This document shows positions 10,186 through 62,135 of a stretch of 64,000 nt of DNA, piece by piece. Below the pieces are notes generated by a model, which saw only the letters and a list, made by a program, of their open reading frames with translations, made no database searches and was not told where the DNA came from. A program made the position numbers and the translations under genes. The DNA is from a virus (Duplodnaviria > Caudoviricetes): the IMG/VR virus record IMGVR_UViG_3300033551_000003, positions 815-64,814 of that record; one strand, written 5' to 3'. Within the stretch, counting starts at the first letter, position 1; every line of letters begins with the position of its first letter.

Positions 10186-11070
10186 GAGTACGCTGGTGGT
10201 TATTGGGTTGCTAATTTGTAGTGGCACGCTAACTGGTCCTGGGTTACTATGCTTTAACGGCACGCTGACTTGTCTTGGATTTGGTTAATGGCATGTTGGC
10301 ACGCTTCCTTTCATTGGGTTTCCAATACGTGATGGCGCGCTAGACTTCTCTTGGATTACTGCTTGGAGTTGGCGCGCTGATTTGATCTGGGTTGCTCTTA
10401 CGCGATGGCACACTTGCCTTCTTTGGGTTGCTGTTGGCCGTTGGTACGCTAGTGAGTTCCGGGCTGCTTCTCCTCAACGACACACTACAAGCCTTTGGGT
10501 TATTGGGAGGGTATGGCACACTACGCGGTGTTGGGCTTCTCCTAGCTTTTGGCACACTGATAGTCCTCGGATTGCTAGCTTAGAGTTGGCACACTCGACG
10601 ATATTGGTTTCCTGCCTTTCAGTGGCACGCTGTACAACGTTGGGTTACTGGGCGGGTCTGGCACACTGGATTCTTGTGGATTGAACATCTTCGGCTTCGG
10701 CGCGCTGACTTGTCCTGGATTACTAGAGTTGCCTCTGACACACTGACCTGTCCCGGGTTACTTCTTCAAGAAGGCACGCTCCTTCATAGTGGGCTACTGT
10801 CACATACTGGCCCGCTAGCTTGGTCTGGGCTGCTTGAGGCGACTTGACACGCTCTTTTGTCCTGGGTTGCTGGTTACCAATAGCACGCTACGGCTCTTTG
10901 TACTCCATTCGATGCATTGGCGCGCTGTCCCTAATGGATTACTTGGCTTGTGTGGCTCACTAAACCTCCATGGGTTACTCGCGCTGGTGTGGCACACTAG
11001 TTGCTTTGGGTTTCCTGAGGTTTTGTGGCACGCTTACCCCTCAATGGGTTGCTTACACGGATTGGCTCGG
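10186..11070 (-). ncRNA. TIGR array 1a (~24 units of ~36 nt)
   Basis: On the minus strand AGYGYGCCA and AGYAACCCA repeats alternate, separated by ~9-nt variable spacers; GGCACGCT-type motif recurs at 10223, 10259, 10298, 10334, 10371... to 11027. Confidence 0.88.
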
Positions 11071-11074
11071 GCCG

Positions 11075-11320
11075 CTATGACCTCCGCTTCGTACCGAATA
11101 AGTAATCCACCCACGAGCGCCCGAGCTCCGGACTGACAGCATCGGCGGGGATCACTGCGACCGAATCGTGGTCTGGTGATACGACTACGACAGGGTGCTT
11201 AGGCACCGCGATTTGCAGCACGGTATCAGCCGGTAGCCTGACCTTCTTCATCTTGGTCTTGGTCTTGATCCGGGTCTTGACCTTGCGCTTGCTAGCAGTC
11301 TTACGCTTCTTCTTTGCCAT
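11075..11320 (-). CDS. Small very basic protein located between TIGR array segments
   Basis: MAKKKRKTASKRKVKTRIKTK...; AAGGAG RBS. Confidence 0.65.
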   Translation of the reverse strand: MAKKKRKTASKRKVKTRIKTKTKMKKVRLPADTVLQIAVPKHPVVVVSPDHDSVAVIPADAVSPELGRSWVDYLFGTKRRS

Positions 11321-11337: not shown

Positions 11338-12115
11338 TAGCACACTGTTAGTGTTTGGGTTACTCAGATTATCTGGCACACTGGCGATCAACGGGTTACT
11401 ATCATAGTGCGGCACACTGTTCCACGTTGGGCTTCTATTACGGCCTGGCACACTTTACCCCTTTGGGCTTATAAATCATACAGGGCTCGCTATCGAACAA
11501 GGGGTTTCTGTTATCCATCGGCTCGCTGGCTACGAGTGGAGGTCTCTCGAACCCTGGCACACTAGGCACTTTTGGGTTGCTTTCCAAAACCTGGCACACT
11601 AGTTCATTTTGGGTTTGCTCATGGCAGATGGCTCGCTGTCAACCTTAGGGTTGCTGGGAATTGACGGCACACTACTCGCATCCGGGCTACTTACGCTGCA
11701 TGGCACGCATCGGCGGCTTGGAGTTCTCACCGGCAGTTGGCACACTGTCACGTTATGGGTTCCTCGCAATCTGATGGCACACTACCGGGCCTTTGGGTTG
11801 CTTCATTGCCGTGGCACGCTATGAGGATTTGGGTTACTGCCTAATTTTGGCCCACTATAGTCCCACGGGATACTGGGAGGTCTTGGCACGCTGAACTTCC
11901 ATGGGCTACTACTAGGGGGTGGTGGCACGCTGGGCTTTCTCGGGTTACTAACCTTAATAGCACGCTTACGCATTTTGGTTTACTGAGTCCCTATAGCACG
12001 CTGCCGGTTCCTGGCTAGTTAGCTTTGTTACCTCGGCACGCTGATCTCTTCTGGATTTGCTGGCTGATCAAAGGCGCGCTCACCTGTTTTGGGTTACTGA
12101 GTTCTTGTGGCACTA
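11338..12115 (-). ncRNA. TIGR array 1b (~21 units)
   Basis: Same dual-repeat ~36-nt period (GGCACACT at 11375, 11411, 11447...). Confidence 0.88.
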
Positions 12116-12467
12116 TTCTCCACCTTCTCCTGGGTCCACCACCATCAATACGATGGCCGCCGCGAGCACCAGCACTAGATATGCCGCCAGGTCAGGCCCT
12201 GTCATCCGATTGGGTTGCTCGCAACTTGGCCGCTATGATCCTGGCCGCTGTGGACTCCGCCTGGTACTTGTTTATCAACGGCTGGGGGGCCTTGATCTTA
12301 CGCATTTGAACGGCTAGCCCCTCATCGGTAGCGGCCTCCTGCTCCAGGTAGGCCGCGAACCGATCCCGTTCCTCCGCCGTCAGCCGTAAACCCACAGCAG
12401 TTCTCCGATTATGTAGATGATCGTCACCACCAACACTAGCGCAACCAGGCCATAGGTCATAACACTG

Positions 12468-37703: not shown

Positions 37704-38025
37704 ATGGCACGCTTTCGAGCAAGGGGTTACTATTCTGATAAGGCACGCTTCACCGTTTTAGGATTCCTGTAACGTCGTGGCACGCTTTCGAGAAGGGGGT
37801 TACTAGACCGTTGAGGCACGCTTTCCCGTTTTGGGTTACTAGCAATCTCATGACACACTCGATTCCTGTGGATTTGTTTTGGTTTTGTGGCTCGCTATCC
37901 CGTTGTTGGGTTACTGACTGGTACCGGCGCGCTTCCTTTCGATGGTGTACTATTCCTGAACGGCACGCTGACGGACCTCGGTTTTGCTAACGAATGCTGA
38001 CACGCTGGTGGCTTCTGGGTTTCTA
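37704..38025 (-). ncRNA. TIGR array 2 (~9 units)
   Basis: GGCACGCT/GGGTTACT motifs alternating with ~36-37 nt period (37706, 37742, 37779, 37816...). Confidence 0.85.
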
Positions 38026-38449
38026 CATCGAATCATGGCGTGTACCTTCATTCTCCGGGATTATCATGTAGTCGTCACCATTCACCTCCCCCGCAAACGC
38101 TCCGGGCTCCATGCTAAACAACCGCATCAACTCGGTCGCCGCATCACCCTTGCAGTATACGCAGTCATCGGTGGCGAACACCCTTAGCCGTGCCGCCAAC
38201 AGGTCGCGGGCCGCCCACCAGGACAGTCCCGTGACCCGCAGACTCTCAGAGGCTGGATTACCGATGTACACCAGGTAGGTCATGACACCCCAGCGGGCTT
38301 CTCCACGAGCTCTATGCACTTAGCACGCACCATCGGGCCGTGTCCGGCCTCCACTGCGACAACCGCGCGCCGACAACCAGCCTCTGTCTCAAACGAAAAG
38401 CTCGCATCTAACTGACCAGTGGCTACCCAAAGTACAAGCATAACCCATT

Positions 38450-44582: not shown

Positions 44583-44584
44583 AA

Positions 44585-46639: not shown

Positions 46640-46657
46640 AAATTAGGAGAATGAAAC

Positions 46658-47152: not shown

Positions 47153-47198
47153 CCCCGGTCTGCCAGAGATGAGCGCCTGGTACTGATGAGACTGCTCA
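47134..47198 (+). ncRNA. Type II hammerhead ribozyme HH13
   Basis: Full core. Confidence 0.88.
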
Positions 47199-47216
47199 AA
47201 TTAGGAGGTAAGACCA

Positions 47217-47648: not shown

Positions 47649-47651
47649 CCA

Positions 47652-47719
47652 GTCGAAACCGGGGTAAGTCCCCCGGTCACCTGGAAACCGGTCCTACCAG
47701 GTCTGAGGAGACAGGACCG
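47652..47719 (+). ncRNA. Type II hammerhead ribozyme HH14 (CUGAGGA)
   Basis: Stem I ACCUGG/CCAGGU; CGGUCCU/AGGACCG pseudoknot. Confidence 0.88.
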
Positions 47720-47728
47720 ATTAGGAGA

Positions 47729-48241: not shown

Positions 48242-48252
48242 ACTTTCTTGAC

Positions 48253-48513
48253 CACGCCGACGTGCATAAGTAACCCTATCAACGCCAGCGTGTCAGAACT
48301 ATACAGAAGTCCAAGGAATTCTAGCGCGTCAATACACACCAGAAACCCAAACAGCCCGAGCGTGTCAGGACGTACCACAAAACCCGTGGAATGAGAGCGT
48401 GCCGTCTATACGAAGTAACCCTGAGTGGTTTAGTGCGCTAAGAGAGGGGAGCAATCCATGACACAGGAGCGCGCCGTTAGGAATAAGCAACCCAAACTTC
48501 AGTAGCGCGCCAA
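48253..48513 (+). ncRNA. TIGR array 3 (~7 units)
   Basis: AGCGYGYCA-N9-AG(T/A/C)AACCCA-N9 units; ends at HH15. Confidence 0.85.
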
Positions 48514-48520
48514 ACAAAAA

Positions 48521-48584
48521 GTCGAAACCGGGGTACGCCCCGGTCTGCTGGATTGAGCATTCCAGCACCGATGAGACTGCTCAA
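48521..48584 (+). ncRNA. Type II hammerhead ribozyme HH15 (CCGAUGA variant)
   Basis: UUGAGCA/UGCUCAA pseudoknot. Confidence 0.8.
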
Positions 48585-48598
48585 ATTAGGAGAATGAA

Positions 48599-49129: not shown

Positions 49130-49194
49130 GTCGAAACCGGGATAAAACCCGGTCTGCCGGATTGAGCATTCCGGCACTGATGAGACTGCTCAAT
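49130..49194 (+). ncRNA. Type II hammerhead ribozyme HH16
   Basis: Full core and pseudoknot. Confidence 0.9.
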
Positions 49195-49208
49195 TTAGGA
49201 GACAAAAC

Positions 49209-49490
49209 ATGATGCAATTGAGAGTGACCTTAAACGGCACCGATCGCAACCCTTGGCATAGGTGGGGGTTAACGCAAAACCCGTTCCCCCAGCTGGGCAA
49301 GGCAGAGTACGACGCCCATTGCTTAAGGCTTCAGTCCTTAGGCGGGGACCCAATTCCCGACACCGATTACATTCGTAAGGTGTTGGAGGGTTGGAGCCCG
49401 GAGTTTGTTGAACTCTGCTGCCAACGCTTTAAGAAGGGTGCGATCGTACAGTTCCACGTGGCGTTTAACGAGTCGAAACTGGGGGTGTAG
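49209..49490 (+). CDS. Hypothetical protein
   Basis: RBS; stop in HH17 stem III. Confidence 0.7.
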   Translation: MMQLRVTLNGTDRNPWHRWGLTQNPFPQLGKAEYDAHCLRLQSLGGDPIPDTDYIRKVLEGWSPEFVELCCQRFKKGAIVQFHVAFNESKLGV

Positions 49491-49536
49491 CCCCCAGTCT
49501 GCCGGATTGAGCATTCCGGCACTGATGAGACTGCTC
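49472..49536 (+). ncRNA. Type II hammerhead ribozyme HH17
   Basis: Stem III CUGGGGG/CCCCCAG covaries. Confidence 0.9.
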
Positions 49537-49555
49537 CAACTTAGGAGATTAAAAC

Positions 49556-49777
49556 ATGACTGTTAAGGAGTTGATCGAACTGCTCCAACAGGAGGACCCC
49601 GAAGCTCAAGTCCACATCACCTACAACTACGGTGATTATTGGAGGACAATCGTTGCCCCTCGCGTTAACCACGTCGAGGAGGGCAGCGTGGCCTTTTCCA
49701 AATATCACAATATGCCAAAGGTGAGTGAAGGTGGGGACGAATCCCCAATTGAGATCGTGGTCCTACTGGGAGCATAG
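49556..49777 (+). CDS. Small phage protein (MTVKELIELL family)
   Basis: Typical N-terminus; RBS. Confidence 0.7.
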   Translation: MTVKELIELLQQEDPEAQVHITYNYGDYWRTIVAPRVNHVEEGSVAFSKYHNMPKVSEGGDESPIEIVVLLGA

Positions 49778-49791
49778 GAGGCTCCAAAGCC

Positions 49792-49962
49792 ATGGAAGTC
49801 AGAGAGCATACCTGCTTAACCTGCGAGCACCAATGGGTGAGCCCCGTGGTGTTCTCGCAGTATACGCAGAACCTGAGCGGTGAACGCACAGAGTTCTGCC
49901 CAAAATGCAACGGCCGGACCGTGTGGTCTGGCCCAGCCAAAACTGTCGAAACCGGGGATTAA
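49792..49962 (+). CDS. Small Zn-ribbon protein (56 aa)
   Basis: CLTC...CPKC; GGAGG RBS; stop in HH18 stem III. Confidence 0.55.
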   Translation: MEVREHTCLTCEHQWVSPVVFSQYTQNLSGERTEFCPKCNGRTVWSGPAKTVETGD

Positions 49963-50010
49963 CCCGGTCTGCTGGAACCCGGTCCTACCAGCACTGATGA
50001 GACAGGACCG
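49945..50010 (+). ncRNA. Type II hammerhead ribozyme HH18
   Basis: Full core and pseudoknot. Confidence 0.9.
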
Positions 50011-50019
50011 ATTAGGAGA

Positions 50020-50637
50020 ATGGAAATGAAAACAGTGAGATTAGGTTTTGATGTACGACTCGCATGCGCGCGGGCCTGGGAGCTCATTTGGGCTTCCAAG
50101 CTCGAGGCACGTGCCAAGGAGAAACATCCACGATGGGCAGGGGCGACGTACTACACCACTGCCAACGACATGGTCAATCAGGTACGAGCCTTCGCGTCAT
50201 GTCACGCCGAGGGCAAGCCCTGGACCGACAAGGTCGTGTACGGCAAGTGGTTTGGGTCTCCCGTAAGATTGCCCTTCAGACTGGAGACAGTCGTTCGCGA
50301 CTGGCTCTTCGAGCAGGCCAGAAACGGCAAGCTCGAGTATCACAATTTTGGACGGGGCCACATCAGTGGTGCCCGCTTCCGCCCGTACGGTGAGCCGATG
50401 GGGCCATCAGAGATAAAGACGATGGTCAACAATCTAAAGCAGCGTACCGATCCCAAACCCAAACCCAAGCATTATAGTAAGCAGGGGATACATGGTCGCC
50501 CGCTTTGCACCGCCCGTCAGCGCAGCGGGTTCTATAGTCGTCCGGACCCCCACGTTCGGACTACCAAGGACCTCCAAGAAGTGACGTGCCCGCGCTGCCA
50601 GAAGGCGCTGGCCTTAATCGCAGAAACCGGGAGGTAA
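50020..50637 (+). CDS. Hypothetical protein with C-terminal Zn-binding motif
   Basis: H...C...VTCPRC; stop in HH19 stem III. Confidence 0.7.
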   Translation: MEMKTVRLGFDVRLACARAWELIWASKLEARAKEKHPRWAGATYYTTANDMVNQVRAFASCHAEGKPWTDKVVYGKWFGSPVRLPFRLETVVRDWLFEQARNGKLEYHNFGRGHISGARFRPYGEPMGPSEIKTMVNNLKQRTDPKPKPKHYSKQGIHGRPLCTARQRSGFYSRPDPHVRTTKDLQEVTCPRCQKALALIAETGR

Positions 50638-50685
50638 TCCCGGTCTGCCGGATTGAGCATTCCGGCACTGATGAAGCTGCTCAAT
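50620..50685 (+). ncRNA. Type II hammerhead ribozyme HH19
   Basis: Core intact, stem II weak. Confidence 0.8.
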
Positions 50686-50700
50686 TTAGGAGAACCACAA

Positions 50701-50994
50701 ATGGCTAAAGCAAAGAAGAGATTCCCCGTGATCACCGAAGCGATCCGGGATCTATGTACCGACAGCGGCTGTTGCTTGGAGTTCCAAACCATAGTCCGCT
50801 GGCTACCACAACTTGCAAGAGTAGAGGCACAGCTGAAAAGGCTATCGCGTAAGCAGGACGGAACTGGCTTTTCCGAATTCAACCACTTTGTATTTGGTGA
50901 TGAGGAAGACCAGAAGCGTCTGCGCACCAAATACAAAATTCAGCTTGCCCACAAGTTCCTCAACGACGTGTTCCATGGCCGGTGGGTGGCATGA
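50701..50994 (+). CDS. Hypothetical protein
   Basis: RBS then ATG (MAKAKKRF). Confidence 0.65.
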   Translation: MAKAKKRFPVITEAIRDLCTDSGCCLEFQTIVRWLPQLARVEAQLKRLSRKQDGTGFSEFNHFVFGDEEDQKRLRTKYKIQLAHKFLNDVFHGRWVA

Positions 50995-51368
50995 AGCGAA
51001 CCAAGCTAGGCGTGGAAATCCCGGTCCAACGGGATCACCGCCGCAACACCATAAATAAACTGGCCAGAACCGAAGTGAGGGGCCAGGACAACCCCCCTAG
51101 CCCGAGCTACGGCCCGGGTTTTAGGCGGATGAAGGCGCGTTTGGGAGCCTCTAAGATGGAGGACATGCGCCAGGATACCATCGCGCAGCAATTCAAGAAG
51201 CGCGAGGAGGTGTCTGGCGAGTCCGTTCCCGAGCGTGACCGCTCATCCTACAAGGATTATCCAACCCCGCGCCAGCGCGCCGTACGCCGAATGGCTGAAG
51301 AAGCTATCGGCAAGGTGCTTGGTACGGTTGAGCCCCATACTGACAAAAAGTCGAAACGCCGCAAGTGA
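50991..51368 (+). CDS. Basic hypothetical protein
   Basis: ATGA coupling; stop in HH20 stem III. Confidence 0.6.
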   Translation: MKRTKLGVEIPVQRDHRRNTINKLARTEVRGQDNPPSPSYGPGFRRMKARLGASKMEDMRQDTIAQQFKKREEVSGESVPERDRSSYKDYPTPRQRAVRRMAEEAIGKVLGTVEPHTDKKSKRRK

Positions 51369-51417
51369 GCGGCGTCGCCTGGAACCCGGTCCTACCAGGC
51401 CTGACGCGACAGGACCG
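51350..51417 (+). ncRNA. Type II hammerhead ribozyme HH20 (CUGACGC; A9C, possibly impaired)
   Basis: Stems intact, core deviates. Confidence 0.65.
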
Positions 51418-51431
51418 ATTAGGAGACAAGC

Positions 51432-52007
51432 ATGACTCAAGAAGAGAAATTCAAACTACACATGTCCAAACTAGACGTACCGGAGGGCTTCTCCGGGGAG
51501 TTCCGGAGGGATATGCCGGAGTGTCTTCACACCGTGAATTACCTTCTCAAGAAGGAGGGCGTGGAGATAATGTTCGACATAACCGGCTCCGGCCACACCC
51601 GGTTCAAGGCCAACGGCGAATGGTACACCTTTGACAGGTTGGGAGTGGAGGATTCGTTCTACCACCTCCCGATGTACAAGGGTCAGAAGGTACCGAGCCT
51701 GAACGAAATCGTCGCCGAGCAGCTTGCGCGTGTCGAGAACCGCATCGCCTACCACAAGACGGCGGTGAAGGTGCCCGGTCTGCCGGGCACCTGGACGGTG
51801 GCACACGATAAGGTGCAGGAGTTGAAGGACCAGCTGAAGGCCAATGGCCATATTACCTTCACTCCGGCCGGTTTCGGAACCGGATACTGCGTCACCAGAA
51901 GGCGGCCGGCAGGCCCCCTGAAGTACGGGCGCAGTCGTGCCAAGCCGGAGCTCGAGGAGTTCCTGGAGTTCAGCCCCCTCTACGTCGAGAACATGGACTG
52001 CGACTGA
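51432..52007 (+). CDS. Hypothetical protein
   Basis: RBS after HH20. Confidence 0.7.
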   Translation: MTQEEKFKLHMSKLDVPEGFSGEFRRDMPECLHTVNYLLKKEGVEIMFDITGSGHTRFKANGEWYTFDRLGVEDSFYHLPMYKGQKVPSLNEIVAEQLARVENRIAYHKTAVKVPGLPGTWTVAHDKVQELKDQLKANGHITFTPAGFGTGYCVTRRRPAGPLKYGRSRAKPELEEFLEFSPLYVENMDCD

Positions 52008-52010
52008 AAA

Positions 52011-52073
52011 GTCGAAACCGGGGTACGCCCCGGTCTGCCAGAGATGAGCTACTGGCACTGATGAGATAGCTCA
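52011..52073 (+). ncRNA. Type II hammerhead ribozyme HH21
   Basis: UGAGCUA/UAGCUCA pseudoknot. Confidence 0.9.
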
Positions 52074-52088
52074 AATAGGAGAAACAAA

Positions 52089-52361
52089 ATGCCAAAGAAG
52101 AAGGAGAAAGACTACAGTATACCAAAACTCAATGATCCTCGCATAATTGGCTATTACCCCAGCCTCAATAAATTAAGTACCGAGGAGTTGGGAGTAATCA
52201 GATTAGACGAATCACAGAAATTCTATAGACGATTAGCAGCCGCCCAAATACGTGCAAAAAGACTGGGCGAGGACCCACGTAAGTGCATGTGGGGATTGGC
52301 CTGGACTGGCACGCCTGCCGAGCAGGCAGCGTTAGCCGATAGGCTGCAATGGAGCAAATAA
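52089..52361 (+). CDS. Hypothetical protein
   Basis: RBS after HH21. Confidence 0.7.
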   Translation: MPKKKEKDYSIPKLNDPRIIGYYPSLNKLSTEELGVIRLDESQKFYRRLAAAQIRAKRLGEDPRKCMWGLAWTGTPAEQAALADRLQWSK

Positions 52362-52363
52362 CC

Positions 52364-52427
52364 GTCGAAACCGGGAACCAACCCGGTCTGCTGGATTGAG
52401 CATTCCAGCACCGATGAGACTGCTCAA
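52364..52427 (+). ncRNA. Type II hammerhead ribozyme HH22 (CCGAUGA variant)
   Basis: Stems and pseudoknot intact. Confidence 0.8.
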
Positions 52428-52442
52428 CTTAGGAGAACTAAC

Positions 52443-52877
52443 ATGAGACAATTAGGTACAAAAGTTTATCTACTTAATCACCCAAAGCTGTCAATGGAAC
52501 TACAACACGGCAGCGAGGGGCCACAATATGACCCCTACTCCTTTCAGGAGATTATCGTCAGGACCCCACAGGGTCGTACGGTACTCCACGAGGGGTTGGG
52601 GTCATGGCTTAAGTTCAATGGCAAGGAGGTCAAGCGCCTACCTGGGCAGGACTATGACGCCTACGAGCGTATGCTAAGGGACGAAGCGTTCCCTAGCTGC
52701 ACGGGCTTCACCGTCACCCAGTTACACCGTATCGCGCGCAAGCTACGCTCGCGTTGCGCTCAGTGTGGTAGCCGAGACTTTCATTATGAGTCCGGCTTCC
52801 CAGGCGAGACCTTTGAGGTTTGCAGTCGGTGCAACCATATCGTTTCCACCAGCTTCAACATCTCTGCCATAGAATGA
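52443..52877 (+). CDS. Hypothetical protein with C-terminal Zn ribbon
   Basis: CAQC...CSRC. Confidence 0.7.
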   Translation: MRQLGTKVYLLNHPKLSMELQHGSEGPQYDPYSFQEIIVRTPQGRTVLHEGLGSWLKFNGKEVKRLPGQDYDAYERMLRDEAFPSCTGFTVTQLHRIARKLRSRCAQCGSRDFHYESGFPGETFEVCSRCNHIVSTSFNISAIE

Positions 52878-52880
52878 AGA

Positions 52881-52946
52881 GTCGAAACCGGGCTCAAACC
52901 CGGTCTGCTGGAAACCGGTCCTACCAGCACTGATGAGACAGGACCG
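52881..52946 (+). ncRNA. Type II hammerhead ribozyme HH23
   Basis: Full core and pseudoknot. Confidence 0.9.
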
Positions 52947-52961
52947 ATTAGGAGATAGAAA

Positions 52962-53240
52962 ATGGCAAAAGAGGTAAGATACTATACTGCAGGGGCCGCC
53001 ATAAAGGCGGTTCTACTGCAAGTTGACTTATACTCACTGGAGCAGTGTAACCCTAACGAGGTTGGGGACTACCTGCAGTTCGAGTACGACGACTATGGAA
53101 AATGCTATACCGTAACTGAGCAAATCGAAGGTATGGCCTTCGCAACAAGTCACGCGTATGGACCTGAATTCGACAGGAAGTTCGTCGTACGCTCTATTGT
53201 TGGTGCCCTTATGGCAGAATACATGGGCATCTACAACTGA
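52962..53240 (+). CDS. Hypothetical protein
   Basis: RBS after HH23. Confidence 0.7.
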   Translation: MAKEVRYYTAGAAIKAVLLQVDLYSLEQCNPNEVGDYLQFEYDDYGKCYTVTEQIEGMAFATSHAYGPEFDRKFVVRSIVGALMAEYMGIYN

Positions 53241-53306
53241 GTCGAAACCGGGCTGAGTCCCGGTCGTCGGGAACCTGATCCTACCCGGCTTGAAGAGACA
53301 GGATCA
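53241..53306 (+). ncRNA. Type II hammerhead ribozyme HH24 (UUGAAGA variant)
   Basis: Close relative of HH9. Confidence 0.75.
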
Positions 53307-53329
53307 TAAATCTTAGGAGAATCAAAATA

Positions 53330-54214
53330 ATGGCAAATAACAATCCACTAAAGGACGTGGCCGTTATAGCGTCTGTAAGTATCAGTCGCTGGACCGGCCG
53401 CAAACTCGATCGGGAAGTTACCGACGAGGTAAACGAGCGTTACGGTGCCGAGATGGATGCCGGACGCTACAACAAGCAACTGATCGCGAAGAAAGCCTTC
53501 GCGGATATCAACAAGATCACCAGGGAAGCGCGCACGCTCCACAAGATCATGACGCAGCCCTGGGTAGGTGACAAGCGTCTGCTCGCCAATAAGCTGATTG
53601 AGAAGTTCACGAAGCGGATGGGCGAGTTGAGGCTGGGCTTCGAAGATGCCGCAGACGAGTTCGACACGAAGTACACAACCTTCATGGAGAACTCGAGGAC
53701 GTCCCGCTTGAAGAAGATGTTCAAGGCCGAGGACTATCCGGATCCGCGCATCGTTCGCAAGAAGTTCTCGTTCCACTGCGCCATCGACTCCATCACCGAT
53801 AACGAAGACCTGCGCCCGAGTGCGTTGCAGGAGTTGTCGGATGATTGGTTGAAGGCGGCCGAGCGGGACTTCAAGGCGGGCCTCGAAGACGCCATGCGCG
53901 ACCCAGTCGAGCGGATCATCGCGGTAGCCACCAAGATGTCCAATCGACTGAAGGAATACAAACCGGCCGTCAACGGCAGCATGGCCGAGAACACGTTCCG
54001 CGACTCCCTGGTCAACAATATCAGGGACCTCGCGGATATGTTGCCGGCGTTCAACCTCACGGGTGATAAGAAGCTCGAGGCTCTCATTGATCGCGTGTCC
54101 CGCGACCTGTGTGAGATCGACGCTGACATCCTGCGGGAGAACGACGGGACTCGTGCCAAGGTTGCCAAGGCCGCCGATGATATCCTCAAGCAGGCCCACG
54201 CCTTAATGGCTTGA
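53330..54214 (+). CDS. DUF3150-like helical phage protein
   Basis: SVSISRWTGRKLD, AGRYNKQL, EDYP, FRDSLVNN, FNLTGD; recalled as often co-occurring with AAA/VWA genes. Confidence 0.6.
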   Translation: MANNNPLKDVAVIASVSISRWTGRKLDREVTDEVNERYGAEMDAGRYNKQLIAKKAFADINKITREARTLHKIMTQPWVGDKRLLANKLIEKFTKRMGELRLGFEDAADEFDTKYTTFMENSRTSRLKKMFKAEDYPDPRIVRKKFSFHCAIDSITDNEDLRPSALQELSDDWLKAAERDFKAGLEDAMRDPVERIIAVATKMSNRLKEYKPAVNGSMAENTFRDSLVNNIRDLADMLPAFNLTGDKKLEALIDRVSRDLCEIDADILRENDGTRAKVAKAADDILKQAHALMA

Positions 54215-54218
54215 GGCT

Positions 54219-54290
54219 GTCGAAACCAAAGGGGGGTATACTCCCTTTGGTCGGTGGGAACTGACCTACCCACCCTGATGAGACAGGTCA
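54219..54290 (+). ncRNA. Type II hammerhead ribozyme HH25
   Basis: Stem III CCAAAGGG/CCCUUUGG; UGACCU/AGGUCA pseudoknot. Confidence 0.9.
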
Positions 54291-54304
54291 TTTAGGAGAT
54301 GTAA

Positions 54305-54664
54305 ATGGCTGGAAACCCCAACAGCGCCCGTGCTCGCTTCAAAGCCTATTTGAAGGAGCATGGAGAGGAGGCCGCCCTAAAGTTCGGGGCGGAAATAGGG
54401 ATGCAACCTGCCCGCATAAAGCGGCTTATTCGCGTATTCACCGGCCAGGCCCCGATCAAGCAGAAACCCTCCACCGTGGAGGTGACTGTGGAACCCGTTA
54501 GGTTTGGTCGGTTTAAGCCGCAGGTTTACCTATTTGGAGACAAGACCTTGGTTGCTCGGTATGTAGCTAAAGGCCCCGAGCAGAGTGAGGTTAAGTTCCC
54601 GAATGGTAACGTGCAGACGGTTGACAATGATTGGCTAACGCCTTTCGAAACCGAGGAGGAGTAA
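54305..54664 (+). CDS. Hypothetical protein (C-terminal SH3/KOW-like strands)
   Basis: RBS; stop in HH26 stem III. Confidence 0.65.
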   Translation: MAGNPNSARARFKAYLKEHGEEAALKFGAEIGMQPARIKRLIRVFTGQAPIKQKPSTVEVTVEPVRFGRFKPQVYLFGDKTLVARYVAKGPEQSEVKFPNGNVQTVDNDWLTPFETEEE

Positions 54665-54715
54665 CTCCTCGGTCACTGGGGTGCTGATCCGACCCCGGTC
54701 TGACGAGATAGGATC
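54644..54715 (+). ncRNA. Type II hammerhead ribozyme HH26 (CUGACGA), 5' of tasA
   Basis: Stem III CCGAGGAG/CUCCUCGG; GAUCC/GGAUC pseudoknot. Confidence 0.85.
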
Positions 54716-54733
54716 CTTAGGAGACAAAGAAAG

Positions 54734-55750
54734 ATGGCTACAATAGACGATGTTGCTGCCTTGCGCCTGATGTGCAAGGGAGCGTATGACCTGCAAAAGC
54801 TGAGAATGCAATGCGGGTTGAGACTTTGGGCGAACTTTAACGCCAAGCTCAAGCAGCAGGCCAACCCCGCTGCCGAAGACACAGAAACCGATGCCGACGA
54901 GATGTCGGAGGAGGCCGAGAAGCTGATCGCTCAGCTAAAGGCCTCCTACGTGCGCCTTACCGATGGTATCGCGCGCAACCGCACACTCCCGGCCCAGAAG
55001 GGCTTCAATGGAGACGAGTTGATCTCGACCTTCACGGAGCTCACACTGGTGGACCAATATATCCAACTGGAGAAGCAGGAGGCCCGCCACTTTCGCCAGA
55101 TGACCCCGCTGCTGGAAGAGATACCGATCTACTCGACGTATCTCAAGCAGGAGCGTGGCATCGGCCCCGCGATGGCGTCCGTCCTTATAAGCTACCTCGA
55201 CCCCGCCAAAGCCGACCACATTTCCGCCTTCTGGCGGTATGCTGGCCTGGACGTGGGGCCGGATGGCATGGGCCGGTCGCGCCGCGAGGAGCACCTGGTC
55301 GAGCGAACCTACATCGACAAGAACGGACAGCAGAAGACGCGAATGGGCGTCACCTACAATCCGTTCCTGAAGACCAAGCTCGCCGGAGTGCTGGCGTCGT
55401 CCTTTCTGCGGCAAAAGTCGCGGTGGAGTGATGTGTACGGAAACTACAAGCATCGCATCACCACCGACCCGAACCGCACGAAGGTTACGGTCACGGAATG
55501 GAAGCGTATGCACAAGGCAGGCGGCATGGACGCCGTCCGTGGGGTTTGGACCCCCGGGCGTATCCACAACGCCTCGTCTCGGTATATGCTGAAGATGTTC
55601 CTGGCCGAACTCTGGACGAAGTGGCGCACGTTGGAAGGACTGCCCCTGACGCCCACGTATCACGAGGCCGTCATGGGTCACGTCCACACGCCATCCGCGC
55701 AGGAGCAGCGCCGTAGCGCCGAGGGTGATGGGGCCACAACCCACACCTAA
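54734..55750 (+). CDS. tasA: TIGR-associated Nop-domain protein (TasA-like, no RuvC or HNH)
   Basis: N-terminal YDLQKLRMQ coiled coil; IS110/Nop motifs RGIGPAMASVLI, SAFWRYAGL, YNPFLKTKL, RIHNASSRYMLKMFLAELW..WR.LEGL; directly followed by a TIGR array; no DEDD RuvC domain. Confidence 0.88.
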   Translation: MATIDDVAALRLMCKGAYDLQKLRMQCGLRLWANFNAKLKQQANPAAEDTETDADEMSEEAEKLIAQLKASYVRLTDGIARNRTLPAQKGFNGDELISTFTELTLVDQYIQLEKQEARHFRQMTPLLEEIPIYSTYLKQERGIGPAMASVLISYLDPAKADHISAFWRYAGLDVGPDGMGRSRREEHLVERTYIDKNGQQKTRMGVTYNPFLKTKLAGVLASSFLRQKSRWSDVYGNYKHRITTDPNRTKVTVTEWKRMHKAGGMDAVRGVWTPGRIHNASSRYMLKMFLAELWTKWRTLEGLPLTPTYHEAVMGHVHTPSAQEQRRSAEGDGATTHT

Positions 55751-55758
55751 GGCAAAAC

Positions 55759-56068
55759 GGCTCGCCACGGGAGCAAAGTAACCCATCGCACCTCAGCGAG
55801 CCATATGTCGCATGTACTCCACAACTGGTTAGCGTGCCGATACAAGCACTAGCAACCCAGAGGATGCTAGCGTGCCAAAGCCACTTAGTAGCTCAGGCAC
55901 TTTCAGCGTGTCATCTAGGTCCAGCAACCCAGGTGAGATCAGCGTGCCGTCAGGAGGAAAGTAACCCAAGATCGAAGAGCGCGCCAGCCTCTCACAGTAA
56001 CCCGTGGCACGATAGCGTGCTAGGAATTGGGAGTAACCCAGATTTCCTCAGCGCGCCAGACCACCAGT
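55759..56068 (+). ncRNA. TIGR array 4a (~8 units) directly downstream of tasA
   Basis: e.g. AGCGTGTCA-TCTAGGTCC-AGCAACCCA-GGTGAGATC; AGCGCGCCA-GCCTCTCAC-AGTAACCCG-TGGCACGAT. Confidence 0.92.
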
Positions 56069-56070
56069 GT

Positions 56071-56137
56071 GTCGAAACCGGAGGTACGCCTCCGGTCACC
56101 GGGAACCTGATCCTACCCGGTATGATTAGACAGGATC
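56071..56137 (+). ncRNA. Type II hammerhead ribozyme HH27 (AUGAUUA, A3-U8) inside the TIGR array, no RBS
   Basis: Stem III CCGGAG/CUCCGG, stem I ACCGGG/CCCGGU, GAUCCU/AGGAUC pseudoknot. Confidence 0.8.
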
Positions 56138-56151
56138 TGGCCTACCCGTTT

Positions 56152-56754
56152 TAGAAACCCAATGGCCAAAAGCGCACCGTGAAAGGATAGTAAACCCTGT
56201 CCGTCTAGTGCGCCAAAAGATTTTAGCAACCCATTAAGAAACAGCGCACCGATAGGAGTTAGTAACCCAACGTCCTTACAGTGCGCCGTTAGGAATAAGC
56301 AACCCAAACTTCAGTAGCGCGCCATATTGGATTAGTAATCCAAACCCTCGTAGCGCGCCAACAAAACGAAGTAATCCATGTCACGCCAGCGTGCCAAAGG
56401 AAACTAGCAACCCATTGCGCAAGCCAGCGTGCCAGTCTGTGATAGTAACCCACAACAGAAAAGTGTACCGTGAAAGCAGAAGCTAAACCCAATGACGCAT
56501 AGTGGGCCATGAGTACGCAGTAACCCATGTGTACAAAGCTTGTCATAGAAAACAAGAAACCCGTCGCGCGACAGCGCGCCGTAGAACACGAGAAATCCGT
56601 CAATCGACAGCGTGCCAGAAGTACGAAAGTAAACCAAAAAAGCATAGCGCGCCGAGAAGTCTTAGTTACCCACGGAAACGGAGCGCGCCAAAATTTCACA
56701 GTAACCCACAACAGAAAAGCGCGCCATAGCCATGTAGTAACCCACTAGCTCATA
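56152..56754 (+). ncRNA. TIGR array 4b (~16 units)
   Basis: 36-nt dual-repeat units continuing to HH28. Confidence 0.92.
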
Positions 56755-56756
56755 GT

Positions 56757-56823
56757 GTCGAAACCGGGGTACGCCCCGGTCGTCGGGAACCCGATCCTAC
56801 CCGACCTGATGAAGACAGGATCG
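56757..56823 (+). ncRNA. Type II hammerhead ribozyme HH28
   Basis: GUCGGG/CCCGAC stem I; CGAUCCU/AGGAUCG pseudoknot. Confidence 0.88.
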
Positions 56824-56853
56824 CAACTTAGGAGATAAACAAGGAAAACCACA

Positions 56854-57900
56854 ATGGCATCAATCAACATGGTTGAAGCAAGACAGATGCTGATAGACAT
56901 GTACGAGGCCAACGAGCCTTTCATGTTTCTCGGCAAGCCCGGAATGGGTAAGACCTCTATGGTCGAGGACGTCTGTCACTGCCTCGGCATCGGCTTCATC
57001 GACTTCCGCCTGACCCTTAAGGATCCGGTGGAGGTTGGTGGTATGCGCGTGCCGGACGTTAAGACGGGGATGCTCCGGCATTTTGTGCCGGAGGATATAC
57101 CCGATGTAAAGCGCCACGGTCCCAAGGGGATCTTCTTGTTCGACGAAATCAATGTAGTTTCTATGCTACTCCAGTCCACGGCTTATGGAATCATCCAGGA
57201 GCGCCGGATTGGGTCGTACAAGATTGATCTTGGTTGGGTACCGATGGCGTCGGGCAACCTCGTCACCGATCGGGCAGCGGCCCAACGCCTATCCACGGCG
57301 CTGGCAAACCGCTTCAATGTCCAGGTCGTCGAGCCACACCTGCCGTCATGGCTGAAGCAATACGGGTCTGAGCACGTGGATTCGCGGGGAACTGCGTTTC
57401 TGCGGTTTAGGCCAGCGTTGTTCAGCTGCATGCCGGGCCAGGTCATAACGATCGACGACAAGACCCAGACCCCGGTCTCCAAGGACGAGACGGCCTTTCC
57501 GTCGGCCCGCTCCTGGACCAAGGCGTTCAAGTTCATCGATAAGCCCCCGACCTATCGGCGCAAGATATTCGCTGGCTATGTTGGCGAAGTCCCGGCCGAT
57601 GAGTTCGAGGCCTATTGGCGAATCATGGAGAACGCCGTGTCCGTCGAGCAGGTTATCGCCGACCCGAAGGGTGCGCCAATACCCAAGGAGGAGGATGCCG
57701 GCACCTACTATGCGGTGACCGGCATGCTGTCGAGGGCGATGGACTTGAAGAACATCAACCCGATCATGACCTACGTCGGCCGTATGCACAAGGACTACCA
57801 AGTCGTTTGTGTCACCGATGCGATGCGGCGTGATGAAGCGCTGCGTAACACGCGGGCGTACGGCAACTGGGCGGTCAACAACCAGGACGTCATGATGTGA
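56854..57900 (+). CDS. MoxR-like AAA+ ATPase
   Basis: GKPGMGKTS, FLFDEIN, ASGN, ALANRF, PSARSW. Confidence 0.88.
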   Translation: MASINMVEARQMLIDMYEANEPFMFLGKPGMGKTSMVEDVCHCLGIGFIDFRLTLKDPVEVGGMRVPDVKTGMLRHFVPEDIPDVKRHGPKGIFLFDEINVVSMLLQSTAYGIIQERRIGSYKIDLGWVPMASGNLVTDRAAAQRLSTALANRFNVQVVEPHLPSWLKQYGSEHVDSRGTAFLRFRPALFSCMPGQVITIDDKTQTPVSKDETAFPSARSWTKAFKFIDKPPTYRRKIFAGYVGEVPADEFEAYWRIMENAVSVEQVIADPKGAPIPKEEDAGTYYAVTGMLSRAMDLKNINPIMTYVGRMHKDYQVVCVTDAMRRDEALRNTRAYGNWAVNNQDVMM

Positions 57901-57915
57901 CAAATCCCTGACCAT

Positions 57916-57980
57916 GTCGAAACCGGGGTACGCCCCGGTCGCCTGGAACCCGGTCCTACCAGGCCTGATGAGACAGGACC
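57916..57980 (+). ncRNA. Type II hammerhead ribozyme HH29
   Basis: Full core and pseudoknot. Confidence 0.9.
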
Positions 57981-57996
57981 AATTAGGAGAACCAAT

Positions 57997-58170
57997 ATGC
58001 CGACACTTCGCTTCAACGATGGCGTTAGCATCAACACGGATGGACACCTTCGCATCATTCACCTGAAGGACGGCTACTACGTGGTGGGCGAGGGCTTGTG
58101 CATGCCCGTCGACACCCGGGCCGAGGGCGAGGAGTTCATCGCCGAGGAGAAGAAGCGCAACGCCAAGTGA
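57997..58170 (+). CDS. Small hypothetical protein (57 aa)
   Basis: MPTLRFNDGVSINTDG...; RBS after HH29. Confidence 0.65.
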   Translation: MPTLRFNDGVSINTDGHLRIIHLKDGYYVVGEGLCMPVDTRAEGEEFIAEEKKRNAK

Positions 58171-58177
58171 AACGTAT

Positions 58178-58251
58178 GTCGAAACTAGGGGGCCGAAAGG
58201 CCTCCTAGTCGGTGAGGAACTGACCGGCCTCGCCCTGATGAAGACAGGTCA
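58178..58251 (+). ncRNA. Type II hammerhead ribozyme HH30
   Basis: Stem III CUAGGGGGCC-GAAA-GGCCUCCUAG; UGACC/GGUCA pseudoknot. Confidence 0.88.
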
Positions 58252-58265
58252 TTTAGGAGAATAGA

Positions 58266-59771
58266 ATGCAGACAATCGAGATAAACAACCCCTTATTGGC
58301 ACGAGTAGTACGCGCGAGAGCGTTCCTACTCCGTAGCCACCCGTTCTTTGGAAACCTGGCCATGCGGCTAAGGATCCGGGAACACAATGAGCTTAGAGTC
58401 AAAACCATGGCAACGGACGGGACATTCCTGTACTGGTGCCGTGAGTTCTTGGAGAAAGTTAGCGACAGCATGCTTTTGTTTGCTGTCGCCCACGAGGTAC
58501 TCCACTGCGCGCTGTGCCATCATACCCGTCGTGGTACGAGGGACCCGCTGCTGTGGAATATCGCGTGCGATCACGTCGTTAACCTGCTGCTAAGGGCCGC
58601 AGGGTTCCGTCCACCGGACTGGGCCTACTGCGACCCCAAGTATACTGGTCTGAATGCGGAACAAGTTTACCGCCTTCTGTACGAGGAACGTAAGCAGCAG
58701 CAACAGCAACAACCGGAGCCAACGCCCCAACCTGGTCAGGACGACCAGCAGGCGACCGGCTCCGGCGACCAAGACCCCGATCAGGAGGCCGACCCCAAGG
58801 GCGGCTCCCCCGGGGATGACGATGAAGAAGGTGACGAAGGAGAAGAGCAATGCGGTTCCAACGGTGGAGCTTCATCCGACCAGGATTCCAAGTCTGGTTC
58901 GGACAGCGAGGATGGGACGTCCGGTACCTCAACAGAGGACGATGCGCCCCAGGATGCTGGCTCTTCTTCCGAGGGCGGGTCTGCGGGGAGTCCCACATCC
59001 GACTCTTCGGATGGGACGCCTGGCCGATCTGGTCTCCCCCAATCCCATGGCGATCCTGGCGGATGCGGCGAAGTTCTAGACGCCGCGCCGTCCTATGATG
59101 ACACCAAATTGTCAGAAGCCGAGGGTGAGTGGCAGACCTACGTCCGTCAAGCTATCAACGTTGCCCGCAAAGCGGGGGAAGGCCGGTTACCGGGCTTCCT
59201 CGAGGAAGTAATCGACACGTTGAACGACCCCCGCACCGATTGGCGTCAAGCCCTTCGGGAGTGGGTGGACTACTCTAATACCAAGGACTACACCTGGACG
59301 ACACCGAACCGCCGTATGTTCGCGTTGGGGTACATAACCCCCGGCATGGTCAGCGATGGACTTAACAAGGTGGCGTTTATCATCGACTCCTCGGGGTCTG
59401 TTCACACCGAGTGGTTGAAGAAGTTCGGCGGTGAAGCCCAAGCCGCCCTCGACGATGGGGCAATCGACAACGCAATTGTAATCTTTGCCGATGATGGCAT
59501 CCACCGTATTGAAGAATACAGTAAGGGTGACATCATCGACTGGACTGTCCAGGGGCGCGGCGGAACTAGCTTCAGCCCCGCCCTGGGTTGGCTGATGGAG
59601 AACGTTCCCGATCTGTCGGGGGCGGTCTACTTTACCGACCTGGACAGCACGGACTTTGGACCGCAGCCGACCTTCCCACTTCTGTGGGCGGCCTATGGTC
59701 CCGATCCGAATGAACTGCAGAGGTTAATTGCGCGGTTGCCGTTCGGCGAGTGTATCGAACTGGTCGACTAA
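58266..59771 (+). CDS. DUF2201-type metallopeptidase-VWA protein
   Basis: PFFG, TMATDG, AHEVLH, WNIACD, acidic linker, IDSSGS MIDAS, GRGGTSF, YFTD. Confidence 0.88.
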   Translation: MQTIEINNPLLARVVRARAFLLRSHPFFGNLAMRLRIREHNELRVKTMATDGTFLYWCREFLEKVSDSMLLFAVAHEVLHCALCHHTRRGTRDPLLWNIACDHVVNLLLRAAGFRPPDWAYCDPKYTGLNAEQVYRLLYEERKQQQQQQPEPTPQPGQDDQQATGSGDQDPDQEADPKGGSPGDDDEEGDEGEEQCGSNGGASSDQDSKSGSDSEDGTSGTSTEDDAPQDAGSSSEGGSAGSPTSDSSDGTPGRSGLPQSHGDPGGCGEVLDAAPSYDDTKLSEAEGEWQTYVRQAINVARKAGEGRLPGFLEEVIDTLNDPRTDWRQALREWVDYSNTKDYTWTTPNRRMFALGYITPGMVSDGLNKVAFIIDSSGSVHTEWLKKFGGEAQAALDDGAIDNAIVIFADDGIHRIEEYSKGDIIDWTVQGRGGTSFSPALGWLMENVPDLSGAVYFTDLDSTDFGPQPTFPLLWAAYGPDPNELQRLIARLPFGECIELVD

Positions 59772-59778
59772 TGGGTGA

Positions 59779-59843
59779 GTCGAAACCGGGGTACGCCCCG
59801 GTCTGCTGGAACCTGGTCCTACCAGCACTGAGGAGACAGGACC
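59779..59843 (+). ncRNA. Type II hammerhead ribozyme HH31 (CUGAGGA)
   Basis: Near-identical to HH11. Confidence 0.9.
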
Positions 59844-59858
59844 GATTAGGAGAATGAA

Positions 59859-60140
59859 ATGAACAAGAGCAAAGACAAGGAGCGGGTAGCTTGGATGCAC
59901 GCCGCCATCGAACTAAACGCCAAGCGTGAAGGCTGGTCGTTATTCGAGTGCGATGACGGTCGCCTACGCATCCAACGCCTGGATTTTCCATACGACTCTA
60001 CGGGACGCCCCATCGATCCACTATTTGACAGCGACGAGTCCGCCGTGCAATTCGTCAAGGACCTCGCTGATACAGGGTCGTCCTTTCACCAAGTTACGCT
60101 TCGTCTGCACGGGATGAAGGTGTCGAAATCTGGAGAGTAA
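59859..60140 (+). CDS. Hypothetical protein
   Basis: AKREGWSLFEC..IQRLD..FDSDESAVQFV; RBS. Confidence 0.7.
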   Translation: MNKSKDKERVAWMHAAIELNAKREGWSLFECDDGRLRIQRLDFPYDSTGRPIDPLFDSDESAVQFVKDLADTGSSFHQVTLRLHGMKVSKSGE

Positions 60141-60142
60141 AA

Positions 60143-60364
60143 ATGCACACGTACCGACATTCCTTCGATGCGTTAGAAGAGTTCCCAAGTAAATGGGAAA
60201 CCGGCCTTTGGATTACCCACAAGGACGGTAATTATTGGCGTACGGTCGCCAGCTTTGACGCCGAGTGGAAGGCAGCGTTGTACGCCTCCTTCCTCAACGG
60301 CGGTAAGCCACCCATCGGTGTGCTGAACGAGCTCTTCGCAGGCGCCAATATCAGCTTCGAATGA
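60143..60364 (+). CDS. Small phage protein
   Basis: AALYASFLNGG motif; GGAG RBS. Confidence 0.6.
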   Translation: MHTYRHSFDALEEFPSKWETGLWITHKDGNYWRTVASFDAEWKAALYASFLNGGKPPIGVLNELFAGANISFE

Positions 60365-60366
60365 AA

Positions 60367-60434
60367 GTCGAAACCGGGGGTGTAACCCCGGTCACGGATG
60401 GGGTGGTTCCCCACCGTCTGATGAAGACAAACCA
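60367..60434 (+). ncRNA. Type II hammerhead ribozyme HH32
   Basis: Core CUGAUGA; UGGUU/AACCA pseudoknot. Confidence 0.82.
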
Positions 60435-60451
60435 ACTTAGGAGAATGAAAA

Positions 60452-61826: not shown

Positions 61827-62135
61827 ATGCTACACAACCCAAATTGGGACAAGCCCTCACTTGCAGGGTTCCTAGCTTTTTGTCGATCCAAGTCAGAGGA
61901 GGTTTACTACTGGGGGAGCAACGACTCTTGCGCTTGCGCTCAGTACTACAAGTCTATTGGTATGTTTGCGCAATGGGAGCATCGCATGGCACCTTCTTTG
62001 TTTAGCATCCCCGATGCAGAGCTACAACTAATGCACAATCTTGACAAGCTGGCATTCAAGACAGCGTGTGAAGGTATTTTTCTCGAGACCGTGACTTTTG
62101 GTAACCTTGCCGATTATATCGAGGCAAATACATGA
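61827..62135 (+). CDS. Hypothetical protein
   Basis: AAGGAG RBS; CACAQY, TFGNL. Confidence 0.6.
   Translation: MLHNPNWDKPSLAGFLAFCRSKSEEVYYWGSNDSCACAQYYKSIGMFAQWEHRMAPSLFSIPDAELQLMHNLDKLAFKTACEGIFLETVTFGNLADYIEANT

Follow-up and report, generated by a model that had tools for sequence, protein, structure and literature searches.

The 64,000-nt stretch of DNA analyzed here, hereafter the window, belongs to a linear phage contig of 64,814 bases (IMG/VR record IMGVR_UViG_3300033551_000003) and harbors a locus in which tasA, encoding a TIGR-Tas protein that lacks a nuclease domain, is directly followed by an array of short alternating repeats. The 338-amino-acid open reading frame (ORF) which the first-pass annotation of this DNA had placed at 54734..55750 on the plus strand is present and represents the single copy of tasA on the contig, while array 1 starts nine bases past its stop codon and runs to 56762. 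The array alternates an edge repeat (consensus AGCGYGCCA) with a loop repeat (consensus AGYAACCCA), interspersed with spacers, at a period of 36, all of which is as previously claimed. The earlier count of approximately 24 units required correction to 25 loop repeats, 8 of them before and 17 after an interruption at 56070-56139, where a 70-nt hammerhead-like element splits an array that had been presented as uninterrupted. The spacer length of 9 nt given for the array holds for most units, but 7 of the 25 contain one spacer of 10 or 11 nt. The gene and the two array segments are as follows.

54734..55750, plus strand: tasA, 338 amino acids, coiled coil and Nop domain without a nuclease domain (NCBIfam, phmmer, AlphaFold2, Foldseek, VIA-align)
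55759..56067, plus strand: array 1, first segment; 5'-truncated edge repeat at 55759, 8 loop repeats (55777 to 56032), last full edge repeat at 56050, then one spacer
56135..56762, plus strand: array 1, second segment; 17 loop repeats, 56153 to 56736

The register of array 1 was established through fuzzy matching and a register table, the alternating repeats being spaced 18 nt apart. Its last edge repeat (56754) is 3'-truncated, and the remaining AGUGUC also constitutes the 5' arm of the next hammerhead-like element. Tandem Repeats Finder reported only two diverged copies (56546-56616) and was otherwise blind to the arrays, in the case of array 1 because half of each unit is variable. No terminator-like site was identified 3' of array 1 on the plus strand, a hammerhead-like hairpin being located there instead, and a consensus promoter scan of 54000-57000 returned 0 sites.

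The encoded protein is TasA, a member of the Tas family without a nuclease domain. It is recognized by the NCBIfam equivalog model NF052498.1, TIGR_Tas_endo ("TIGR-Tas system RNA-guided endonuclease"), at 120.4 bits against a cutoff of 100 (E = 1e-34), and a phmmer search of PDB sequences returned TasH (E = 1.2e-8) and the TasR entry 9mty (E = 2.9e-8), with no others at E ≤ 10. In PHROGs, it falls within phrog_4285, which bears the label "transposase" (E = 3.4e-35). The motifs GIGP (residues 142-145), SAFWRYAGL (164-172), and YNPFLKTKL (208-216) occur in the translation as quoted previously, and their designation as IS110/Nop type was right only in a loose sense, the sole Pfam match of the protein being a sub-threshold one to Transposase_20 (15.2 bits; cutoff, 21.3). 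Pfam detected no nuclease family in TasA at E ≤ 10, nor a DEDD domain or a Nop family. Among 3,731 candidates from a large protein collection, 595 homologs were identified at E ≤ 0.001; those among the 120 matches listed are 279 to 448 amino acids in length, with an identity of at most 68%.

The AlphaFold2 model of TasA, built on 40 homologs, displayed a mean predicted local distance difference test (pLDDT) score of 86.5 and a predicted template modeling score of 0.78. A Foldseek search of the PDB with this model, a check which the first-pass annotation had put forward, yielded TasH or TasR chains as all ten of its best matches (E about 1e-8). Comparison by VIA-align produced Z scores of 18.5 for TasH (residues 65-298) and 18.2 for TasR (residues 112-302; root mean square deviation of 2.0 over 189 residues), as opposed to 13.6-14.0 for IS110-family recombinases (their residues 124-314) and 6.6 for archaeal Nop5. 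The TasH and TasR matches cover residues 4-312 of the model, which consists of helices only across residues 1-130, and they open at TasH residue 63-66 and TasR residue 112, past the HNH and RuvC domains, thereby upholding the earlier statement that TasA possesses neither domain. Because the fold match starts at the coiled coil of TasH and TasR, the architecture is that of TasA, which its discoverers defined as a solo coiled-coil and Nop protein (PMC12045711). The aligned homologs measure 310-367 amino acids and display no longer N terminus; longer fused forms were not searched for.

Across the entries available for TasH of Salicola phage CGphi29 and TasR of Thermoproteota (9w03, 9w04, 9vzx, 21kl, and 9mty), Z scores range from 17.6 to 18.5 at 24-26% identity to TasA. 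TasH harbors an N-terminal HNH domain (residues 1 to about 64) and TasR a RuvC domain (residues 1 to about 111), whereas TasA is devoid of both, and cleavage by this protein is therefore not expected. The IS110 recombinases IS621 and ISCro4 have the fold of their RNA-binding domain in common with TasA (Z = 13.6-14.0); TasA, in contrast, lacks a DEDD/RuvC-like domain and is accompanied by a many-guide array rather than by a single two-loop bridge RNA. An identity as an IS110-family transposase was rejected, given the below-cutoff Transposase_20 score (15.2 versus 21.3) and the lack of a DEDD domain. Rejected, too, was a box C/D small nucleolar ribonucleoprotein (snoRNP), as there is no Pfam Nop match, the Z score to Nop5 is 6.6, and neither fibrillarin nor L7Ae was found among 93 ORFs of the contig, which is approximately 63% complete.

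Residues Y289 and H296 of the Salicola-phage TasH were named in a 2026 paper as those that process pre-tigRNA, and according to a 2026 preprint, dual-repeat systems retain this Tyr/His pair whereas stem-loop systems have lost it. In the phmmer alignment, Y309 and H316 of TasA face these two residues. The family alignment shows no variation at Y309 or H318 in any of its 40 sequences, and H318 is considered a likelier counterpart than H316 because the latter position is variable; the predicted loop 316-320 has a pLDDT below 50. The alignment points to a candidate Tyr/His processing dyad on the C-terminal loop of TasA.

A scan for chains of repeat ends uncovered three more arrays with the same repeats, beyond the coordinates of the first-pass annotation:

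48251..48512, plus strand: array 3; 7 loop repeats, with ORF 47729-48241 on one side and a hammerhead-like element on the other
37705..38032, minus strand: array 4; 9 loop repeats; the first shares bases with the stop codon of ORF 38023-38319, and past the last edge repeat come the ribosome-binding site and the start of ORF 37039-37650
11338..12116, minus strand: array 2, first segment; 21 loop repeats
11075..11320, minus strand: ORF of 81 amino acids between the two segments of array 2, with a lysine-rich N terminus and a ribosome-binding site
10186..11079, minus strand: array 2, second segment; 24 loop repeats, running into the next gene (ATG at 10176)

In total, the four arrays comprise about 86 loop repeats, each representing a guide unit. 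When the whole contig was Markov-shuffled 20 times, the chained motif score never exceeded 30.5, a maximum that all six array segments surpass, array 1 reaching 35-36. Every array is co-oriented with its flanking genes, and the arrays fall in three gene blocks. No terminator-like hairpin is located ahead of the ribosome-binding site of the gene that follows array 2 or array 4. The 81-amino-acid ORF within array 2 has no Pfam family and no homolog in 87 related loci.

Complete units were parsed in 84 cases, 53 of which hold two 9-nt spacers. In these 53 regular units, which come from all arrays, the information content is 0.5-1.9 bits per repeat column and does not exceed 0.22 bits in any spacer column. 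Positions 1 and 2 of both repeats are A (51) and G (50 or 52), positions 7 to 9 are C, C, and A/G, and the middle of the loop repeat reads YAAC. In the edge repeat, position 3 is occupied by C in 37 units and by U in 15, and position 6 by G in 51, such that a C-G or U-G pair between positions 3 and 6 can form in 52 of the 53 units, with only one side varying. Degenerate repeats also exist, such as TGTACTCCA and TTCAATCCA. Several units are evidently related to one another: the last unit of array 3 (48486) recurs unchanged in array 1 at 56298, array 1 units 56444 and 56700 share spacer B, the adjacent array 1 units 56555 and 56591 differ at few positions, and four array 2 units (10762, 10724, 10284, and 10248) carry related spacers B, GGACAAGTC and variants thereof. 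The presence of such identical and near-identical units, both within and between arrays, suggests that the arrays grow by duplication and divergence.

TIGR-Tas systems were described in 2025 (Faure et al., PMC12045711), and TasA-mediated repression was reported in a 2026 preprint. In the solved TasR complex, each repeat is reported to start with a box D (UG) and to end with a box C (CCA), the loop repeat being A-rich and the edge repeat having one more pair. The locus described here resembles the dual-repeat TIGR-TasA systems as reported (PMC12045711; FpTasA; PlTasA and MbTasA in 2026 preprints) in its solo coiled-coil and Nop protein, its same-strand array beside the gene with two alternating 9-nt repeats, 9-nt spacers, and a period of 36, the CCA 3' end of both repeats, the A-rich loop repeat, and the edge repeat, in which one extra pair can form. 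Further common features are the 5' truncation of the first edge repeat and the 3' truncation of the last, the phage setting, and the Tyr/His pair on the C-terminal loop. Unlike in those systems, box D is AG rather than UG, about 86 units are spread over four arrays, which occupy both strands and reach a distance of up to 44 kb from tasA, and an ORF is present inside array 2. Published arrays most commonly comprise 5 to 15 units (PMC12045711), and a 2026 survey is reported to have searched around tas loci. Moreover, TIGR arrays are said to end typically in a rho-independent terminator, whereas no T-run terminator follows the arrays in the window; arrays 1 and 3 end in hammerhead-like elements instead, and arrays 2 and 4 continue into the gene that follows.

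The association between protein and array was assessed in 87 loci containing TasA homologs, of which 80 are on viral contigs and 7 on contigs of metagenome-assembled genomes (MAGs), the latter genomes belonging to five different lineages. A period-36 array signal above the null was present within 6 kb in 80 of the 87 loci, and a period of 37 was found in three further loci (L018, L019, and L022); the remaining four gave no clear signal, at least two of which (L021 and L074) end close to the homolog. The association of the protein with such arrays is strong across the family. More distant homologs are furnished with other repeats, such as AACGAGTCA and AGAAAACCA at L071 (6850-7220). No tested neighbor is shared by more than 11 of the 87 loci, homologs of the MoxR-like ATPase and the VWA protein encoded 3' of array 1 occurring within 6 kb of tasA in 9 and 11 loci, respectively. 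In five related phage genomes (68-71 kb, 88-100% complete), arrays are mostly located beside tasA, and three of the five contain a small distant array match. In two related phage genomes, a loop-edge-loop stretch stands alone, more than 20 kb from tasA, at G003:C1:48865-48909 and G005:C1:3774-3818 (the records of L011 and L030), with a near-identical first spacer in the two (GCCAGACTG and GCCAAACTG), and may represent a conserved orphan guide.

The search for paired spacer A/B sites that the first-pass annotation had envisaged was conducted on the contig and the related loci, and it returned no DNA target for any guide pair. The site geometry (spacer B, then spacer A in reverse complement) was derived from the reported 8-nt 3' overhangs and cut position, and the other order was tested also. 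For the 25 guide pairs of array 1, neither target geometry yielded anything on the contig above two control geometries and 20 shuffled pairings. When 82 pairs from all arrays were compared with the array-masked contig, no site at ≤2 mismatches was found in either target geometry, the sole two-mismatch match being in a control geometry. The same 82 pairs gave no site at ≤1 mismatch in the 864,070 bases of the 87 related loci; at two mismatches there were 4 and 7 matches against 1 and 2 in the controls, and three of those 7 correspond to a single site that lies within arrays, in three loci that are nearly identical. An 18-nt site taken from the unit common to arrays 1 and 3 had four exact matches in viral_contigs, all in AT-rich contigs, two of which are identical; these were discounted as targets since they resemble chance matches, which 18-mers will produce when a collection is this large. 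In the 2026 preprint, the search for targets is reported to have met with the same difficulty.

The contig is that of a phage, encoding a terminase, a family A DNA polymerase, a clamp loader, a RecA/UvsX-like protein, a primase, a helicase, and a NusG-like protein. It has a G+C content of 55.7% and is estimated by CheckV to represent approximately 63% of the genome; no close cultured relative was found. The locus is contained in soil metagenomes, with at least half of the sampled words present in 13 runs. In contigs from four of these runs, tasA exhibits six substitutions and array 1, where covered, zero base substitutions; these contigs break at 56283-56324, because the array 1 unit located there is also present in array 3.

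Based on these data, we propose, with a probability of roughly 80%, that the locus constitutes a dual-repeat TIGR-TasA system of a soil phage which binds DNA without cutting it. The TIGR-Tas architecture suggested by the first-pass annotation is borne out by the family model, the fold without a nuclease domain, the period-36 repeats, the shared box C/D ends, and the Tyr/His pair. Other TasA proteins are reported to bind 36-nt RNAs, to bind target DNA, and to repress reporters reversibly without loss of the target, and a function in binding or silencing rather than cleavage would be in agreement with those experiments. By analogy, TasA would form a dimer through its N-terminal coiled coil, each Nop domain presumably gripping a single repeat by its box D (AG) and box C (CCA) ends. 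The Tyr/His pair of the C-terminal loop is predicted to cut long array transcripts in the middle of the edge repeat, which would generate a 36-nt tigRNA composed of half an edge repeat, spacer A, the loop repeat, spacer B, and half an edge repeat. An 18-bp DNA site would then be recognized by the two 9-nt spacers, one pairing with each strand, as in the characterized systems, and the complex may bind and bend the DNA so as to block transcription or replication, binding instead of cutting being anticipated because TasA has no nuclease domain. The arrays are probably transcribed as parts of operons, since each is co-oriented with the surrounding genes, and the targets would most likely be the DNA of the host or of rival mobile elements, as the phage's own contig holds none.

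A number of observations weigh against this proposal. No natural target for the guides was found, and guided binding is thus proposed by analogy; similarly, no RNA runs are listed as holding the locus, and expression and 36-nt processing are accordingly predictions. Because the contig is only approximately 63% complete, a partner nuclease or targets on the phage's own genome could be situated in the missing part. Box D is AG in both repeats as opposed to the UG of the solved TasR complex, a divergence to be set beside the discoverers' rule that box motifs may diverge but stay alike in edge and loop repeats. A spacer of 8 or 10-12 nt is present in 31 of the 84 parsed units, some of which may not work, and the phmmer-aligned H316 is not conserved, position 316 varying across the family alignment. 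Finally, the three hammerhead-like elements around tasA and array 1 fall below the Rfam score, and one of them has a changed core.

Cleavage might nonetheless be achieved if TasA served to locate the site, with cutting left to a recruited phage or host nuclease that has a gene of its own, and the stand-alone nucleases encoded on the contig (a PDDEXK_15 protein at 62132-62650 and an SbcD-like phosphoesterase at 62652-63671), together with the third or so of the genome that is missing from it, leave room for such a two-part system. We consider this quite unlikely, however, as these genes lie 6-8 kb from tasA and are members of common phage recombination sets, no tested neighbor recurs widely (a maximum of 11 of 87 loci for the MoxR-like ATPase and VWA protein), and other TasA proteins are reported to repress reversibly with the target kept. 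The Nop fold held in common with Nop5 and Prp31 (Z = 6.2-6.6) and the box C/D-like ends of the guides might alternatively indicate that the protein is led to RNA, in the manner of a box C/D snoRNP, for RNA modification or RNA binding. Such a role appears extremely improbable given that no fibrillarin or L7Ae family was detected by Pfam in the 93 ORFs, that the fold is far nearer to TasH/TasR (Z = 18) than to Nop5 (Z = 6.6), and that TasR is reported to have displayed no activity on RNA substrates.

The discoverers of TasA raised the idea that it participates in the phage's own DNA transactions (PMC12045711), whereby a sharp bend would aid recombination, packaging, or partition at sites set by the guides, and the position of the largest array, which lies just upstream of the terminase gene and small ORFs of its own strand, would fit such a function. 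No guide pair matches the phage's own contig, however, and no integrase or ParB family is present among the scanned ORFs, making this explanation very unlikely. An equally low probability is assigned to the arrays being decaying relics without working guides: irregular spacers in 31 of the 84 units and several degenerate repeats (e.g., TGTACTCCA and TTCAATCCA) are what decay might produce, yet tasA is intact and has 59 invariant columns in common with 39 homologs, 53 units are perfectly regular, and array 1 remained without substitution in contigs of other soil samples, where covered, in which tasA accumulated six.

The system proposed here, an RNA-guided DNA-binding TasA with its arrays, would be of a known kind, and the locus leaves the picture of how the TIGR-Tas family works unchanged. 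What makes it interesting is how large and dispersed its guide set is, the AG form of box D, and the bounding of arrays by putative ribozymes. Interest in TIGR-Tas proteins stems from their reported potential as very small, protospacer-adjacent motif-free programmable DNA binders. The locus offers a natural TasA example with an unusually large, scattered guide set tied to neighboring operons and putative ribozymes. It bears on how guide arrays are expressed and excised, on how they grow, since duplicated and diverged units are visible, and on whether surveys restricted to arrays near tas undercount guides.

The hammerhead-like elements at the borders of tasA and the arrays belong to a larger collection. 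A whole-window Rfam scan identified seven type II hammerheads (RF02276) at the gathering score on the plus strand, and a scan of 41-61.5 kb identified eight, with 19 rows at E ≤ 0.041. A covariance model, designated R1, was built from 18 Rfam-found hammerheads and retrieved 32 full-length copies, every one of them a plus-strand element within 41796-60435 with E ≤ 1.1e-8, the next best match scoring 13.3 bits; a regular-expression search was too noisy for use. The copies sit between genes of the plus-strand block, and a loop/tail pseudoknot covaries in many of them (e.g., GGUCC/GGACC and GAUCC/GGAUC). Four copies bound tasA or the arrays:

54643..54717, plus strand: hammerhead-like element just 5' of tasA; R1 39.6 bits, E = 2.5e-9; GAAA, GUC, and CUGACGA core; stem III spans the stop codon of ORF 54305-54664
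56070..56139, plus strand: hammerhead-like element splitting array 1; R1 49.3 bits, E = 3.3e-12; core AUGAUUA (C3 to A, G8 to U); loop/tail pseudoknot GAUCC/GGAUC kept
56756..56824, plus strand: hammerhead-like element closing array 1; R1 63.5 bits, E = 2e-16; GAAA, GUC, and CUGAUGA core, extra A before stem II
48520..48585, plus strand: hammerhead-like element closing array 3; R1 74.3 bits; core CCGAUGA (U4 to C)

These four elements are absent from the Rfam scans, those around tasA even at E ≤ 10, which makes them putative ribozymes. The core of the first is canonical, as is that of the third apart from its extra A, while the activity of the element at 56070..56139 is uncertain on account of its changed core. 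When applied to the five related phage genomes, R1 gave 0 matches, compared with 32 in the window's own record as a control, and hammerheads are consequently not a family trait. Two sub-threshold matches to the HDV-like ribozyme family (RF02682) were also observed in this plus-strand gene block, at 42988-43052 and 43350-43414 (34.3 and 28.1 bits; gathering score, 44). Clusters of hammerheads in phages and prophages have been reported to flank genes and were proposed to cut long transcripts into gene-length pieces (Perreault et al. 2011, PMC3088659). The arrangement in the window is similar in that many type II copies flank single genes or short blocks on one strand, but differs from the clusters described in that report in that some of the flanked "genes" are non-coding TIGR arrays; no published link between hammerheads and TIGR arrays was found in the literature searched. 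The plus-strand hammerheads would probably cut array RNAs free of the neighboring messages.

A thymidine hypermodification gene set is located on the minus strand and is listed here together with the DNA polymerase gene:

23503-30411, minus strand: hypermodification set, including a thymidylate-synthase-like/DUF3310 fusion, an HD phosphohydrolase, and an amino acid:DNA transferase
23503-30411, minus strand: matches to the 5-hmdU DNA kinase domain in three ORFs, one under the Pfam cutoff
27953-29398, minus strand: CitMHS-type transporter-like gene
19626-22223: DNA polymerase with an N-terminal UDG-superfamily domain

The DNA of the phage is probably modified, which may have a bearing on how the guides distinguish self from non-self. 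A joint reading, in which RNA-guided repression is timed, arrays are released by hammerheads, and the modified DNA of the phage is perhaps spared, is tentative and, taken as a whole, rather doubtful. With about 86 guides in at least three separately oriented gene blocks, guide sets would be expected to appear at different stages of infection. If true, the freeing of plus-strand array RNAs from the polycistronic message by hammerheads, before TasA trims them to 36 nt, would be a ribozyme-assisted way of maturing guide RNAs that is not described for TIGR or CRISPR, and the thymidine-hypermodified phage DNA may be spared while guides act on unmodified host or rival DNA.

The remaining genes considered in relation to the arrays are the following:

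56854-57900, plus strand: MoxR-like AAA ATPase, 3' of array 1
58266-59771, plus strand: DUF2201 metallopeptidase/VWA protein, 3' of array 1
62132-62650: PDDEXK_15 protein, stand-alone nuclease
62652-63671: SbcD-like phosphoesterase, stand-alone nuclease
13135-13728, minus strand: NusG-like protein (Pfam NusG, E = 1.3e-12; PHROG label "transcription antiterminator")

The product of 58266-59771 is labeled "HNH endonuclease" in PHROGs, yet has no HNH domain according to Pfam. The gene for the NusG-like protein shares its strand with array 2 and lies upstream of it.

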